A DNA stretch of 64,000 nucleotides, from positions 64,001 through 128,000 of the IMG/VR virus record IMGVR_UViG_3300044695_004134, one strand, 5' to 3'. The DNA is from a virus. Every line of letters begins with the position of its first letter. Within the stretch, counting starts at the first letter, position 1. A model generated the notes under the pieces. That model was given only the letters and a program-made list of their open reading frames with translations. It did not search any database and was not told the DNA's origin. The translations under genes were made by a program, and so were the position numbers. Shown piece after piece: positions 2 through 23,780 of this stretch.

Positions 2-937
2 GTTCTTGATTTTTATAGTTCGACTTCAGGTCCAGCTGTATCAACGGCATATGCACATTTATATACTACTACCAGTTCACCTGCGAGTACTGAAAATACA
101 GATATATCAGCCCAAGTTGGCGCATACGACAATCCATCGTCCGGCCCAATTGGTCAACCTATGGTATACAGTAACCTTCCGACTATAGACTCAGGTTTAG
201 CTGTGAATAATTTTGGTACGATTGTCAAAAATAGATTGGTAGTGGAAGGAAATGACAATGTTTCTACCGGTGTCAGTGCCATCGGACTTAAAATTGTCAA
301 CAAAAGTCCTAACCCCGGTTCTGTCAACACGCCACTGGTATATCTACATCATAGAAGTCAATTTCCCACCACTGGTCCATCAGTTTATATGGCGTTTCAA
401 AATGGACCTACAGAAACTGGTTCCATTTTTACTTCATCCACAACAACAAGTTATTCGACAAGTTCGGATTACAGACTAAAAGAAAATATCAATCCTGTTG
501 AATCAGGACTCGACATTATTGCGGCACTTAGACCAAGATCGTGGACATGGAAAATAAATAATGAAGAAGATATGGGCTTTATTGCTCATGAAGTTCAAGA
601 AGATGCGCCACAAATTGCAGGTTCAGTGAGTGGTAAAAAAGATGAAGTCATACGTTTTGGTAAACTAATTGATGCAAACGGTGATGCTAAACTTGCCATG
701 GAAAGTGATGAGGAGTTACAAGTTCCAGAACCATCCGAAGAAGATGCCGCAAGATATGCCAGCGAAGGTTACACATGGACACACTTCAGAGATGAGCCTC
801 TCTATCAAGGAATCGACACATCATTTATGGTTGCTCCGCTTGTGTCGGCAGTTAAAGAACTAAAAGCTATTGTTGACCAACAACAAGCGCAAATAACAAC
901 ACTTGAACAGAGAATTACTGCTCTAGAGACTGCTTAA
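2..937 (+). CDS. Tail fibre/spike C-terminus with intramolecular chaperone (peptidase S74), 5' partial
   Basis: Frame is open from nt 2. It has SSDYRLKENI and GFIAHEVQE motifs and a C-terminal coiled coil (AVKELKAIVDQQQAQI). Confidence 0.9.
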   Translation, partial: VLDFYSSTSGPAVSTAYAHLYTTTSSPASTENTDISAQVGAYDNPSSGPIGQPMVYSNLPTIDSGLAVNNFGTIVKNRLVVEGNDNVSTGVSAIGLKIVNKSPNPGSVNTPLVYLHHRSQFPTTGPSVYMAFQNGPTETGSIFTSSTTTSYSTSSDYRLKENINPVESGLDIIAALRPRSWTWKINNEEDMGFIAHEVQEDAPQIAGSVSGKKDEVIRFGKLIDANGDAKLAMESDEELQVPEPSEEDAARYASEGYTWTHFRDEPLYQGIDTSFMVAPLVSAVKELKAIVDQQQAQITTLEQRITALETA

Positions 938-3777: not shown

Positions 3778-4111
3778 ATAATTTTAGTGCATCTTCATAT
3801 GTAATATTCAGATTATAATTGGTGGAAAGATATTTGGCAAATACCTGTTTGCTTACGAATTTATTGTATTCGAATTCAAGTTGTTTTCTGAATGCTTCTA
3901 GTTCATACTGTAGCCGCTTTTCTTTTGAAAAAAGGTAAAACAAACCATTAATACCTAATGTTCTCCAAAACTGATTCACGTGAACCTTTTCATGTTCAAG
4001 GAGTGGAATGTTTCCTTTGACCGAAGGTCGTAAAAGTATGATGAAAGCCACAGTGTAACCTGCGAACCTTTTTGGCATCAAGTTCGTGTAGAACACTAGG
4101 TAATTTTTCAT
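3770..4111 (-). CDS. Small HExxH (zincin-like) protein
   Basis: LLEHEKVHVNQ motif with a downstream Glu. Confidence 0.5.
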   Translation of the reverse strand: MKNYLVFYTNLMPKRFAGYTVAFIILLRPSVKGNIPLLEHEKVHVNQFWRTLGINGLFYLFSKEKRLQYELEAFRKQLEFEYNKFVSKQVFAKYLSTNYNLNITYEDALKLFD

Positions 4112-8079: not shown

Positions 8080-8388
8080 TTATAGTTTTGGAATATCAAA
8101 CTCAACACCTTTTCCATCTTCTTGCGCTTTGATGGAGTTCGTTTCTTTCTTTGCTTTAGGGAAACGTTTTGCAATGTCTTCGGCGGTTACCGTGGACATA
8201 GCAAACTGCACAAATGCGGAGTAATCATCAGATACCGTCATGGTACGTGGACCACCAGCCTCTATTGCAGAAAAATAGAGAACACAACCACCAGCAACGA
8301 GTGGTGCAATCTCAATGATATTATCTAGATTGATAATAAGTTTGCAGTTCTTAGGTGCAATAGAATTAACTTCAACGAATGTAGCCAT
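8080..8388 (-). CDS. Hypothetical protein
   Basis: ORF with a GAGG RBS. Confidence 0.7.
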   Translation of the reverse strand: MATFVEVNSIAPKNCKLIINLDNIIEIAPLVAGGCVLYFSAIEAGGPRTMTVSDDYSAFVQFAMSTVTAEDIAKRFPKAKKETNSIKAQEDGKGVEFDIPKL

Positions 8389-8831
8389 AATAACCTCTTA
8401 ATAAAAAAAATAAAAACCAATCAACATCATAAAACAAAAAACGCCAAAAGTCAAGGCGTATACCTTTTTCTTTCGGCGTTCTTCGATTTCTTGATATATC
8501 TTTACCTGTTCCAGGAATAACTCAAAATTGTCCATAATAAAACCAGAATTGTTTCAGATAGTTTATTTAGCTGTCACGGTATCAATCTGATTTTTTAAAA
8601 TTTCAACTGTTGCGGCTAATTCTTCGTTAACACGAATGCCATCTAAATTCAGTTCTTGGATTCTATTTTCCAATTGCTTCATTTCGGCAATCATCTTATC
8701 AAATTCTTGTTCAATTACGTTTTGCATGTTAGTACATTCCTGTATTCTTTGGATTCTTACGAAATTCTATTAGAAATTCGCAAAACATTTCCAGTGCTTG
8801 TTTAATTAAAGACATGTTTGTCTCCAATTAT

Positions 8832-9050
8832 TTAGACGGCCTTAGCCGCTTTTTGCACTGCGTTTGTTGCTTCTTCTGAAACGTGTGTGGAAATATCAGT
8901 GAATGATTTGAAAATTTGTTTTGTGAATGCGGTTTGTGCATCAACAAATGCGTTGAGTGGCTTACGAATCTTTTCATCAGTAATGAAAGCGGATACGAAA
9001 TACTTTTTGGAACCTTGGACGGTATCGATGAATGTGTCTGTTGCGAACAT
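8832..9050 (-). CDS. Small amphipathic helical protein, phasin-like
   Basis: Ala/Thr/Gln/Lys-rich amphipathic sequence, AGGAG RBS, PhaR-type operator upstream. Confidence 0.5.
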   Translation of the reverse strand: MFATDTFIDTVQGSKKYFVSAFITDEKIRKPLNAFVDAQTAFTKQIFKSFTDISTHVSEEATNAVQKAAKAV

Positions 9051-9114
9051 TGTTTTCTCCTAAATTTAGCGAGGGTTAATAAAAATAGTAATCTATATTA
9101 GCATTACTACTTAG

Positions 9115-9145
9115 ATTATATAGGTTTCTATGATGCGGTGCAACA
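9115..9145 (-). promoter_or_regulatory. Sigma70 promoter TTGCAC-17-TATAAT overlapped by a PhaR-like site TGTTGCACCGCATCA
   Basis: -10 at 9115-9120, -35 at 9138-9143, TGC-N3-GCA dyad at 9131-9145. Confidence 0.65.
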
Positions 9146-9167
9146 TGGATTCCATAGAATGCCATGT

Positions 9168-9425
9168 CTAAAGTTTTTCAATGTAGTTGTATTGAAGGTG
9201 CCGTTTAGCCTCATGTACCGAATGGGTTTTGTGGCCATTGATATAGATGACCTTCGGTGAATACACCAAAATCTCACCCTCAATCATTTTCAGGCGATAA
9301 AAGGTTTTACCTTTTGAATCAACTTCTTTGGTCCGGATATCACGGAAATTCTCAGCGAGACCTGCCCACATAAGTGTTTCACGAATCTCATCCGAGATTA
9401 ACATACGAAAATAATTTGCGTTCAT
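9168..9425 (-). CDS. Hypothetical protein
   Basis: ORF directly below an early promoter. Confidence 0.65.
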   Translation of the reverse strand: MNANYFRMLISDEIRETLMWAGLAENFRDIRTKEVDSKGKTFYRLKMIEGEILVYSPKVIYINGHKTHSVHEAKRHLQYNYIEKL

Positions 9426-20530: not shown

Positions 20531-20596
20531 ATTATACACGATCCGTAGAGAATGGCAACCTACTAGAAAAGTTCTCCATCCGTCCGGTCAAGTATT
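20531..20596 (-). promoter_or_regulatory. Early promoter TTGCCA-16-TATAAT with a type-B operator
   Basis: -10 at 20531-36, -35 at 20553-58, AGTTCTCCATC-N5-GGTCAAGTATT at 20570-96. Confidence 0.75.
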
Positions 20597-20724
20597 GAGA
20601 AATAAGAATTTGAATAGATGGTAAAATATGGGAATTATAAAGATTGTCCACATGAATACAAAAAGAATAATGAAAATCCACTTGAACAGAGTGAGTATAA
20701 AGCCAAAAAAATCAAACATTTAAA

Positions 20725-20928
20725 TCACCTCTTATAGTGAACCGGACGCTCATAACGACCTTCAGAGTCTCGATAAACGGAGACATAATGACCGTGCTTT
20801 GAACCATCATCGAAAGTGTAAGAGAAGGTAGAATTATAGGAGAGTGGAGGGAAATTCAGTGCCCATGATTCCAATAATCCTTCAGATTCAAGAGCAGAAT
20901 TGAGGGTGGGAAAGAAGTTTTGTTTCAT
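20725..20928 (-). CDS. Hypothetical protein
   Basis: VSVYRDSEGRYERPVHY; coupled ORF. Confidence 0.7.
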   Translation of the reverse strand: MKQNFFPTLNSALESEGLLESWALNFPPLSYNSTFSYTFDDGSKHGHYVSVYRDSEGRYERPVHYKR

Positions 20929-21164
20929 ACGAATAAATCTCCATAATATTCTTCATCAAAAGAATCAAAATCTTTTTGTATCCATTCAATAGTATAACCA
21001 GAAGAAGAATACTCAGAAGCCATTTTCTCCAACTCAGCAAGAGCCATAGAGGGAGAAAGTTTTCCAGAAGCCATCAGAGACAGGTTGGAGCAATGCATAA
21101 AGTTATTGGAATCTTTATGTGCGGAGACCTGAATGAATCGCTTGGGTGTGTTTGTGTGTGTCAT
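20925..21164 (-). CDS. Hypothetical protein, probably leaderless
   Basis: The ATG at 21164 lies 7 nt below the TATAAT at 21172-77. Confidence 0.6.
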   Translation of the reverse strand: MTHTNTPKRFIQVSAHKDSNNFMHCSNLSLMASGKLSPSMALAELEKMASEYSSSGYTIEWIQKDFDSFDEEYYGDLFV

Positions 21165-21171
21165 GGATGGT

Positions 21172-21233
21172 ATTATAGCGGTACTGGTAGGAATGGCAAT
21201 AGCATAGTTAACGGGTGTGACGAAAATACAACA
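21172..21233 (-). promoter_or_regulatory. Early promoter TTGCCA-16-TATAAT with TGTGA-N8-CAACA operator
   Basis: -35 at 21194-99, operator at 21216-33. Confidence 0.75.
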
Positions 21234-21278
21234 TGGAACATTGGAACGTGTTGGATGACCAATATGCAATATAGTGCA

Positions 21279-21321
21279 TGTGGAGAAAGGTGTTGAGAAC
21301 CTGTGGATAAACTGTGGATAA
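21279..21321. promoter_or_regulatory. Tandem DnaA-box array
   Basis: TGTGGATAA (reverse complement of TTATCCACA) at 21302 and 21313; degenerate TGTGGAGAA at 21279 and TGTTGAGAA at 21291. Confidence 0.65.
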
Positions 21322-21328
21322 CTTTTGG

Positions 21329-21480
21329 GTGTCGCTGTATGTGTCGCAGGGTGTCGTGGGTGTTGGGTTGCTATTTAGTCTTAGTGTCTGGCTCTGAAAC
21401 GCCTGAAAATTTCACAGAGTGTCTCAGAGGTGACAGCACGTTTCCGCACGTTCCAGTGGGTTCCAGTGGGTTCCAGCACG
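21329..21480. repeat. Helically phased short direct repeats (GTGTCG x3; TTCCAGTGGG-type decamers)
   Basis: GTGTCG at 21329, 21341, 21351; decamers at 21431-21480. Confidence 0.75.
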
Positions 21481-21556
21481 GTTTGGAATGTTTTGCTCTG
21501 TGTGGGTGTCAGAATGTCTCAGAGTGGTGCTGGACGCCCATTGAAAAACCATCAGG

Positions 21557-21592
21557 CAGCCTCTACGTCCACCCCCAGTCTTGCTGTTCGAA
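21557..21592 (-). repeat. G-rich ~35-nt element, copy 1 (candidate ncRNA 5' end)
   Basis: TTCGAACAGCAAGACTGGGGGTGGACGTAGAGGCTG; near-identical to 23637-23670. Confidence 0.75.
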
Positions 21593-21603
21593 CCAATGGA
21601 TCC

Positions 21604-21658
21604 ATTGTACTCTAAAAAAGACCACCTGGCAACCACCAGGTGTCTCATCTACGCAACA
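21604..21658 (-). promoter_or_regulatory. Promoter TTGCCA-17-TACAAT with TGTTG-N8-AGACA operator, firing into non-coding DNA
   Basis: -10 at 21604-09, -35 at 21627-32, operator at 21641-58. Confidence 0.7.
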
Positions 21659-21883
21659 TCACTCCTCTTCGGAGAATCCTTCAATCAGCACTATCTGGTC
21701 CTCATAGTAGGACCTTTCCTCCTCCATGCACAGGTTACCCTCGACCTCGAACACCAGGTCCGTGGCCATCCTTTCGCCACAACCAGTGGAGGTCATCACG
21801 AATTTGATAATATCCTCGAATGCATCGCCATTGGTGATGCATGATTCAATATCGATAATCAAGTCTTTAAATTTGCTCATCAT
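21659..21883 (-). CDS. Small acidic hypothetical protein
   Basis: AAGG RBS; D/E-rich. Confidence 0.65.
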   Translation of the reverse strand: MMSKFKDLIIDIESCITNGDAFEDIIKFVMTSTGCGERMATDLVFEVEGNLCMEEERSYYEDQIVLIEGFSEEE

Positions 21884-22017
21884 CAACCTTTCAATTTAGT
21901 GTATACTGTACGGGCGGTGAATGTAATATCAGGAATGCGGTGCTCACGCCGTGCCAACCAATTCACCATATACTTCCAACCAAATGCTTGTGTGTTCGTC
22001 ATAATATCTCCTTTAAA

Positions 22018-22899
22018 TTAACCGCAGATGGTGTATTCTGCAAGGTCTTTCCACTTGGCACCAGCAGACTTGCGGATTTTAGTGGTCTGGATGAGTGTAC
22101 GGAGTGACAATTCTTTCACCTCATCTTGGAGGTTGTCAATCAGGTCCAGAGCATCGGACTTTTCAGTCTTTGAATACTCTGGCATAAACTCAGGAAGGGA
22201 CACCAGGTGGCGCATACGCTCCACTTTTTGCTCGGTTGTCATTGTCAGGTCAACAGCCATGGAACGGGTGATGATGGCTTGGTCCATCGAATCGGAGGAC
22301 AGGTTAGAGATAAACACCACCCGGCCCTTGAATTCAAAGGATTGTGGGAGTTCGTCATCCTTCATGTCTGCACGCCATGAAATCACACGGCGGGAGTAGG
22401 AGTCCAATGCACCTTTGAGCAGGTTCAAGGACACTGGATCCTTCAGCACGGAATCGCAGTCGTCAAAAACAACCACGCCGTCCTTGTTTTCATACAGTGT
22501 ACGGTACAGGCCTTTTGGAGTGGAGTAGCCCTTGATAACACGGTAGGACTTGGTGGTGTTGATTTTGCCACCGACCTCGAATTCATCCAGGAGGGTAACG
22601 TCCTTCATGCCGGCATCATTCAGTGCCTTGGTGACGGTGTGGGACTTGCCAAGGCCACCGGGACCAGATACAACCACCGAGGACTGGTCACCTTTCACCA
22701 ACATGGCGACCATGTCAGACACGAAACCGAACCGCTGGTTGATGGTGAAGCGGGACTCCTTCACATTGACAGGAGCACCACCGGTGGCACCTGTAGCCTT
22801 GCGGATCACATAGTCCATGTGTTCCTTTTTGGCACGCTTGACCACCTTGCCGTTGATGTTGGCCACGTATTTGCCACCTACGAACTTGACTTCAATCAT
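22018..22899 (-). CDS. P-loop ATPase of unknown function
   Basis: GPGGLGKSH, VVVFDDCD, VFISN, AIITRS. Confidence 0.8.
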   Translation of the reverse strand: MIEVKFVGGKYVANINGKVVKRAKKEHMDYVIRKATGATGGAPVNVKESRFTINQRFGFVSDMVAMLVKGDQSSVVVSGPGGLGKSHTVTKALNDAGMKDVTLLDEFEVGGKINTTKSYRVIKGYSTPKGLYRTLYENKDGVVVFDDCDSVLKDPVSLNLLKGALDSYSRRVISWRADMKDDELPQSFEFKGRVVFISNLSSDSMDQAIITRSMAVDLTMTTEQKVERMRHLVSLPEFMPEYSKTEKSDALDLIDNLQDEVKELSLRTLIQTTKIRKSAGAKWKDLAEYTICG

Positions 22900-22927
22900 A
22901 ATTTCCTTTTTTCTTTACAATGGTTGG

Positions 22928-22979
22928 ATTATACAGGTACCACTTAGAATGGCAACCAATACTTGACCGGACAGGTCAA
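22928..22979 (-). promoter_or_regulatory. Promoter TTGCCA-16-TATAAT with TTGACC-N5-GGTCAA operator
   Basis: -35 at 22950-55, operator core at 22963-79. Confidence 0.8.
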
Positions 22980-23263
22980 CATTCAGGGTCAAAATCCGCC
23001 CACTCTTGGGCTTCGTCCGGCTGACCGTCATCCTCATCCTCGGACTCCATCTCATCCTCGGTGAGACCTTCCACGAAGGTGTCTTCCTCGGTCAAGGAAT
23101 CCACGTAGTCGTTAAAGGAGCACCGGTATGCCACCGGGTCGACCTCACGCAGGACCTCGGAAGCGGAATAGGTCATACCGCACAGTTCCACCGGACCTTC
23201 ACAGTCGTCCAGCATCTCATCAAACCATGCATAGGCGGTGCGCTCAGATATTAAACGGGACAT
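22976..23263 (-). CDS. Highly acidic small protein
   Basis: About 31 D/E against 4 R and 0 K in 95 aa. Confidence 0.75.
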   Translation of the reverse strand: MSRLISERTAYAWFDEMLDDCEGPVELCGMTYSASEVLREVDPVAYRCSFNDYVDSLTEEDTFVEGLTEDEMESEDEDDGQPDEAQEWADFDPEC

Positions 23264-23295
23264 TTTCTTTCCTTTTCTTTCACAATATGGATTGG

Positions 23296-23347
23296 ATTAT
23301 ACAGGTTTCGGTAGGTTTGTCAACCAATACTTGACCGGATTGGTCAA
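23296..23347 (-). promoter_or_regulatory. Promoter TTGACA-16-TATAAT with TTGACC-N5-GGTCAA operator
   Basis: -35 at 23318-23, operator core at 23331-47. Confidence 0.8.
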
Positions 23348-23553
23348 GAATCGAATTCGCAGGATTGAGTGTTGTACAGGTACAACGCCTCGCCCTCATT
23401 CAGGATGGCCGCCACTTCCATGGCTTCCTGTTCGGAATCAAATGATTCTATGGAGGTGCCCATGCGGACACCATTCACCAGTGGAGACCAGCGGACCACA
23501 CGGAAGTCCATGGTTTTGTCGTGGTATTCGGCGGTGTAGGTTTTGTTCATCAT
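23344..23553 (-). CDS. Hypothetical protein, probably leaderless
   Basis: The ATG at 23553 is 7 nt below TAGAAT (23561-66) of a TTGCCA promoter. Confidence 0.6.
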   Translation of the reverse strand: MMNKTYTAEYHDKTMDFRVVRWSPLVNGVRMGTSIESFDSEQEAMEVAAILNEGEALYLYNTQSCEFDS

Positions 23554-23636
23554 GTCGTGGATTCTACAGGTTCCAGCAGGTTTGGCAACCATGCTTGCAA
23601 TAGTCGACCAAAATGGTGGGTTATTAATATAACGCC

Positions 23637-23670
23637 CAGCCTCCGTGTCCACCCCAGTCCTGCTTTCGAA
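23637..23670 (-). repeat. G-rich ~35-nt element, copy 2
   Basis: TTCGAAAGCAGGACTGGGGTGGACACGGAGGCTG, directly below the promoter at 23678-23705. Confidence 0.75.
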
Positions 23671-23677
23671 TAGGTCC

Positions 23678-23780
23678 ATTATACCAGAACCAGCCGGTTT
23701 GGCAAGTAACCAAATAGTTCTCCATCCTTCCGGTGGGTCATTCCGAGGATGGTTGCCATTCTCGCTGGTTCTGGTATACT
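23678..23780. promoter_or_regulatory. Back-to-back divergent promoters flanking a type-B-like operator
   Basis: Minus: TTGCCA(23700-05)-16-TATAAT. Plus: TTGCCA(23753-58)-16-TATACT. Operator at 23716-42. Confidence 0.75.

Follow-up and report, generated by a model that had tools for sequence, protein, structure and literature searches.

The carbon-storage polymer PHB is a major store of carbon and reducing power in environmental bacteria, and PhaR circuits are well studied in the betaproteobacteria. ApdA of Rhodospirillum rubrum is a phasin that activates PHB depolymerisation. Phage genes can lie under host nutrient regulators, as illustrated by the PhoB boxes before cyanophage pstS and phoA and by the NtcA sites in cyanophage promoters. 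We know of no phage that senses or uses PHB, and to our knowledge a PHB signal acting through PhaR is undescribed for any phage. Neither a phage phasin nor a PhaR-controlled phage gene turned up in the literature that was searched.

The closest described system is the PhaR/PhbF/AniA-phaP circuit of C. necator (PMC12849132), H. seropedicae (PMC3206438) and S. meliloti (PMC12542648). The locus described here has the same palindrome as this circuit, TGCR-N-YGCA with T at -7 and A at +7, and the palindrome likewise overlaps the core promoter of a gene for a small helical protein.

The 64,000-nt window analysed in this work runs from base 64001 to base 128000 of a virus record with a length of 166,193 bp and a completeness of 99%. 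We find that lytic aquatic phages carry a compact cassette consisting of a boxed promoter, a structured leader and a 72-aa gene. What is new in the best-supported model is that the known PhaR-phaP circuit would be carried by lytic phages. From the observed features of the box we infer that host PhaR would bind it and repress an early promoter, and that the product would act at granules as a minimal phasin; this is the best explanation that we can offer, and we regard it as having about an even chance of being correct.

Sequence collection and controls

A scan of viral contigs yielded 154 confirmed loci encoding homologues of the 72-aa protein, of which 80 were fetched; 61 loci were non-redundant, and the count of the TGC-N3-GCA dyad used 60 non-redundant loci. 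The loci are mutually related, with protein identities of 42-99%. The bacterial control consisted of 81 genomes, sampled evenly across the class to which an alphaproteobacterial MAG belongs; the tally was 49/81 genomes, and G042, which is unpublished, enters this tally and no other result. As control genes we took 30 bona fide Phasin_2 genes and one more from a second MAG. A 17-position matrix was built exclusively from 60 boxes of bacterial phasin genes, with no phage boxes among them.

The phage and its genomic setting

This uncultured virus is a T4-like myovirus, and its genes for a peptidase, an RNR, and CobS-like and DnaB-like proteins share about 35% identity with their counterparts in T4-like cyanophages and pelagiphages. 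Its genome also encodes the following RNA genes:

G000:C1:61368-61742 (L120:386-764), about 2.3 kb before the window start: permuted two-piece tmRNA, detected by ARAGORN
Genome 134.8-145.6 kb: 30 tRNA genes

The tag peptide of the tmRNA is given by ARAGORN as ANDSEYRLAA. Compared with Rfam, the tmRNA scores 104 bits for beta_tmRNA (cut-off 84) and 107 bits for tmRNA_permuted, and the beta_tmRNA type only hints at a betaproteobacterial host. The RNR was considered as a second pointer to the host and rejected. Its matches, 72-76% identical (L083-L087), lie in MAGs of Bacteroidetes, Bacteriovoracaceae, Chlamydiia and Sediminibacterium; they are most likely phage contigs that were mis-binned into these MAGs, and therefore no host can be inferred from the RNR. 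A search of the phage collection by megablast with 2 kb and by tblastn with the 72-aa protein gave no match. PhaC, PhaZ and PHB-esterase genes are absent from the phage, and searches of its genome with Esterase_PHB and PHB_depo_C found none. The PhaR N-domain was not found in the phage genome either, which implies that a box of the kind described below is read by a host protein.

A PhaR-type box on an early promoter

The initial annotation had placed a TTGCAC-17-TATAAT promoter ahead of the 72-aa ORF, with its -35 inside a dyad at 9131-9145. Both are found on the minus strand exactly as described; 9145-9131 reads TGTTGCACCGCATCA, and the dyad TGCACCGCA overlies the -35 of the promoter. The elements from the upstream gene to the 72-aa gene are:

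9155..9171, minus strand: conserved upstream element TTAGACATGGCATTCTA / TTAGACNNGGCANNCTA, overlapping the stop codon of the upstream gene
9130..9146, minus strand: PhaR-type box ATGTTGCACCGCATCAT, a 17-nt near-palindrome with its centre about 18 nt upstream of the -10
9138..9143, minus strand: -35 hexamer TTGCAC, inside the left half of the PhaR-type box and a variant of the TTGCCA -35 family of the phage
9115..9122, minus strand: -10 element TATATAAT, with TATAAT at 9115-9120, 17 nt past the -35
8832..9050, minus strand: gene for the 72-aa protein, a predicted two-helix and possibly distantly phasin-like protein, with ATG at 9050

The promoter is most likely a sigma70-type early promoter. 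Its family, TTGCNN-16..18-TAYAAT, is represented by 22 copies in the genome, of which 20 lie on the coding strand; shuffled sequences contain 4.4 +/- 2.0. The preferred -35 of the phage is TTGCCA, the hexamer of most family copies. TTGCAC is absent from the generic promoter scan because only 3/6 of its positions match TTGACA. Within the -10 region, ATATA is invariant in the 22 aligned loci. A sigma54 reading was considered as well, as TGGAAT-N5-TTGCA can be seen by eye in the window, and was rejected since its GG is not kept in relatives. Further early promoters of the type TTGCCA-16/17-TATAAT occur on the minus strand at window positions 3840, 9459, 12547, 13789, 18899, 20558-23705 and others, and TG often precedes the -10 in this family.

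The box has the core TGCA-C-CGCA at 9142-9134, in which the dyad is formed by TGC (9142-9140), ACC and GCA (9136-9134). It thus has the TGCR-N-YGCA palindrome centred on one base, as well as the flanking T at -7 and A at +7 that match real phaP boxes, and it covers the -35 of the gene that it would regulate. The core fits the S. meliloti PhaR motif YGCRNYGCR / WNWDDNYGCRNYGCRNHHWNW (PMC12542648). It agrees at 12/14 specified positions with the R. eutropha motif YTKNTGCRNYGCANMAR, which has a single-base centre and conserved positions 1-4 and 7 (PMC12849132), the two mismatches being the outermost positions. The H. seropedicae motif TG[N]TGC[N]3GCAA (PMC3206438) is matched except for its last base, TG[N]TGC[N]3GCA(A), and L003 and similar relatives fit it perfectly. 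With the R. sphaeroides motif CTGCNNNGCAG, as cited in another paper, the box fits four published PhaR/PhbF/AniA motifs, and its single-base centre and variable flanks agree with the published PhaR logos.

Bacterial phasin genes provide a direct comparison. YGCRNYGCR boxes occur upstream of 30/30 alphaproteobacterial Phasin_2 genes, and several of these boxes read ATGTTGCAnTGCAACAT, which is the phage sequence letter for letter. In the usual layout of the sampled bacterial phasin genes, there are two boxes around the -35, the first immediately preceding a CTTGAC -35 and the second lying over +1, whereas the phage has a single box on the -35. When the phage genome was scored with the bacterial matrix, the window box ranked first of 166,177 positions with 19.9 bits (maximum 24.7), and the runner-up had 13.3. 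A second PhaR box in the phage genome was looked for among the next scores (13.3 and 12.6 bits) and rejected, as these are within the range of shuffled genomes.

Leader, downstream ORFs and gene neighbourhoods

The upstream element TTAGACATGGCATTCTA occurs exactly once in the window in this form. Loci with differing neighbourhoods can be aligned over it, giving the consensus TAGAnnCGGCAnACTAGTA, and it travels with the cassette. Two structures are predicted in the leader, and four small ORFs follow the 72-aa gene:

9083..9112, minus strand: leader stem-loop by folding prediction, starting 3 nt after the -10 and followed by a U-rich tract
9057..9073, minus strand: CUCGCU-N6-AGGAG mini-hairpin in the predicted MFE structure, pairing the Shine-Dalgarno sequence with one bulged G
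8729-8827, minus strand: 28/32-aa ORF, likely start ATG 8814
8563-8727, minus strand: 54-aa ORF
8398-8535, minus strand: 45-aa ORF with a hydrophobic, membrane-helix-like tail VYALTFGVFCFMMLIGFYFFY, conserved in syntenic relatives
8080-8388, minus strand: 102-aa ORF

An equivalent of the leader hairpin is found in 15 related loci, with 9 pairs, 6 of which show compensatory changes. The Shine-Dalgarno sequence AGGAG (9061-9057) is invariant in all aligned loci. The role of the mini-hairpin that pairs with it is uncertain because the phoH-linked group of loci described below does not preserve this pairing. A ROSE-type thermometer and a freshwater-2 leader were considered and rejected: there was no ROSE match, and the best Rfam matches, mir-1000 (E 0.88) and freshwater-2 (E 2.8), are at chance level. 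The Rfam search of the leader in 27 related loci found nothing.

Three very short ORFs had been reported behind the 72-aa gene, and they are present at 8729-8827, 8563-8727 and 8398-8535 at intervals of 1-27 nt. A scan of the minus strand between 9050 and 8400 revealed no terminator-like site, and the downstream small ORFs (8080..8827, minus strand) are probably co-transcribed with the 72-aa gene. They are conserved in the syntenic relatives L003-L014 and absent from the phoH-linked loci; the 72-aa gene is therefore the constant cargo of the cassette.

At least two gene neighbourhoods of the boxed cassette can be distinguished, namely the synteny of the window and a position directly downstream of phoH. 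The latter is seen in a second phage group, L015-L060 (e.g. L043:2155-2910 and L018:2088-2909), where the cassette lies immediately downstream of a PhoH-like gene, which indicates that it moves between phage lineages. The phoH-linked cassette adjoins a homing-endonuclease-like or an NAD-synthetase-like ORF.

The 72-aa protein and its resemblance to phasins

The family of homologues comprises 56 clusters at 90% identity and 203 at 50% identity; its members are nearly all metagenomic, measure 56-160 aa and share the motif MFTxDxxIDxVQxxKKxFVxTFV...FxDAQTxYTK. AlphaFold2 with the family alignment confidently predicts a two-helix hairpin for the window protein, H2-22 and H26-71, with a pLDDT of 92.9. 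The long helix is amphipathic throughout (muH 0.41 over 46 residues). The protein had been described as amphipathic and rich in Ala, Thr, Gln and Lys; this is correct for its amphipathic character and for Ala, Thr and Lys, but not for Gln (A10, T9, F8, K8, Q4).

The amphipathic, all-helical architecture and the type of promoter are shared with the phasins of Phasin_2 (PF09361) and TIGR01841, yet an amphipathic alpha-helical architecture is not specific to phasins. Against Pfam Phasin_2 (PF09361), the window protein scores 17.2 bits, below the cut-off of 24.9, which places it outside the family. Across 67 members of the phage family, Phasin_2 is nevertheless the most frequent Pfam match, with 5 members at E<=0.01 and a best E of 1.6e-4, all below the cut-off. 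NCBIfam gives TIGR01841 in 6 of the 67 members, TIGR01985 in 3 and TIGR02131 in 1, all of them weak.

Profile comparison by hhalign with the alphaproteobacterial phasin domain gives a probability of 54-58% and an E of about 1e-4 over 39 columns, confined to helix 2. The local match spans positions 53-91 of Phasin_2, and the near-invariant Q of the phage family is aligned with that of the phasin family. The observed score is 30.8; the reversed profile scores 14.0, and none of 100 column shuffles exceeds 18.2. No phasin counterpart was seen for the N-terminal helix with its motif MFTxDxxIDxVQxxKK, and the phage protein is about half as long as bacterial phasins. A PDB sequence search and Foldseek returned designed helical bundles and matches at E>1 only; they are uninformative because a two-helix hairpin is too simple to provide fold evidence. 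The protein may be distantly phasin-like, a weakly supported assignment, and is not a member of the family.

This partial resemblance bears on the main competitor of our preferred explanation, which we consider unlikely although far from negligible. In this alternative, PhaR gates the promoter and the product is no granule coat protein: it would target PhaR or another host component, or would simply be encoded by the leading gene of a micro-protein operon, and the cassette would be a carbon-state sensor with another purpose. All operator evidence is common to both explanations. A similarity that stays below threshold and within one helix, in a protein of 72 aa against a Phasin_2 domain of 100 positions, would be expected if the product were no coat protein, and the many non-phasin genes in the S. 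meliloti PhaR regulon (PMC12542648) point the same way. On the other hand, phasin families are the only ones to recur in two independent libraries (Pfam and NCBIfam), and the profile match is far above its reversed and shuffled controls. The tight packing of small ORFs behind the 72-aa gene suits the operon variant, but these ORFs are not kept with the cassette in the phoH-linked phages.

Conservation and identity of the box

If the dyad is an operator, it should recur upstream of homologues, as the initial annotation had proposed. TGC-N3-GCA is indeed present upstream in 33/60 non-redundant loci, at a density of 3.65 per kb compared with 0.158 per kb elsewhere in the loci (23-fold). With the bacterial matrix, a box of at least 15 bits is found within 200 nt upstream in 31/61 non-redundant loci, whereas this score is not reached at any of the 310,650 background positions in these loci. 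Owing to the mutual relatedness of the loci, these counts overstate the number of independent events, and 31 loci do not equal 31 independent events.

The central base of the box varies among phage loci (C, T, G or A), while both arms are fixed. Three promoter layouts are observed. In the first, the box lies on the -35 with its centre 18 nt before the -10. In the second, following a 9-nt deletion, its centre is about 10 nt before the -10, in the spacer. In the third, seen in L061-type loci, two boxes accompany TTGACA-17-TATAAATA. The variable centre with fixed arms, the three promoter layouts and the different neighbourhoods argue for selection on the box itself.

A distinctly unlikely alternative is that the palindrome is bound by another phage or host regulator with a similar half-site, or is a promoter element only, so that its likeness to PhaR sites would be convergent. 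TTGC also starts the general phage -35 TTGCCA, and half of the box is therefore promoter sequence anyway. However, the second half-site and the flanking T at -7 and A at +7 are conserved as well and match bacterial phaP boxes. The box also survives the shift into the spacer and flanks a different promoter in L061, and none of the other TTGCCA-family promoters of the phage bears it. The absence of a PhaR-like gene from the phage, together with the position of the box before the one gene with phasin-like signals, likewise speaks for host PhaR.

It is highly improbable that the dyad arose by coincidence at an unremarkable early promoter of an unremarkable small phage ORF. The bare TGC-N3-GCA is admittedly not significant, as the 166-kb genome contains 16 copies where about 22 would be expected, and 9/300 shuffled genomes attain the score of the window box somewhere, but the difference between the 31/61 loci and their background, the retention of the box across contexts and promoter layouts, and protein identities that argue against the loci being one recent clone leave chance little room.

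Proposed role and relation to known systems

The operator half of the earlier PhaR-phasin proposal is strongly supported in silico, as the box equals those of phasin genes, fits the PhaR motifs and is conserved upstream of homologues. For the remainder, it is reasonable to suppose from the sequence that the gene would be expressed only in PHA-loaded hosts and that its product would coat or mobilise granules. The host is presumed to possess both PhaR and PHB. According to our preferred explanation, free host PhaR (PhbF/AniA) would occupy the box in a host cell without PHB granules and block RNA polymerase at the -35, whereas in a PHB-loaded cell the granules would titrate PhaR away and the promoter would fire. 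PhaR is also able to activate (PMC12849132). The 72-aa gene would then be transcribed by host RNA polymerase, probably with the small ORFs behind it. The protein would most likely be located at the granule surface as a minimal phasin, altering the coat or the access of the depolymerase; the displacement of host phasins or of PhaR is another candidate action.

More broadly, and somewhat more tentatively, we suggest that the lytic phages of PHB-storing freshwater proteobacteria may share a mobile 'PHB-sensing cassette', found in a T4-like phage and in many viral contigs. PhaR would serve as a fuel gauge, and the minimal phasin and the micro-proteins would be switched on only in carbon-rich cells, where the granule coat would be remodelled and the polymer released or protected for phage replication.

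Compared with the PhaR-phaP circuit, the phage carriers are lytic and lack phaR, phaC and phaZ, and their cargo is a 72-aa protein that falls below every phasin cut-off. The logic is shared with the PhoB and NtcA sites of cyanophages, where the promoter of a lytic phage reads the state of the host through a binding site for a host transcription factor, but the signal proposed here is the carbon-storage polymer PHB, sensed via PhaR. ApdA sets a precedent for the promotion of PHB mobilisation by a small protein of the granule coat, which is the advantage suggested for the phage; this is a functional analogy only.

If the proposal is correct, this lytic phage promoter with its host PhaR box would add a new case in which a phage gauges the physiology of its host by way of one of the host's own regulators. 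The protein family would then represent a large family of 'minimal phasins', with >200 clusters at 50% identity, and possibly a source of small PHB-binding tags. For many uncultured phages, the box would also restrict the candidate hosts to proteobacteria that possess PhaR and store PHB.

Variant loci

The box is lost or altered in about half of the homologue loci. L005:2800-3006 is a natural box-less allele, in which the protein is 96% identical and the promoter has a TTGACT -35 and no PhaR half-sites in a different upstream context. Control through the box is therefore dispensable, as these box-less homologues illustrate. In some homologue loci the spacing is TGC-N4-GCA, which may not allow PhaR binding. 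At L061:2870-2925, a perfect TTGACA-17-TATAAATA has one PhaR box within its spacer, and a second box, in inverted orientation, follows shortly after the -10. The phasin-like ORF of L061 possibly has an in-frame N-terminal extension of 25 aa.
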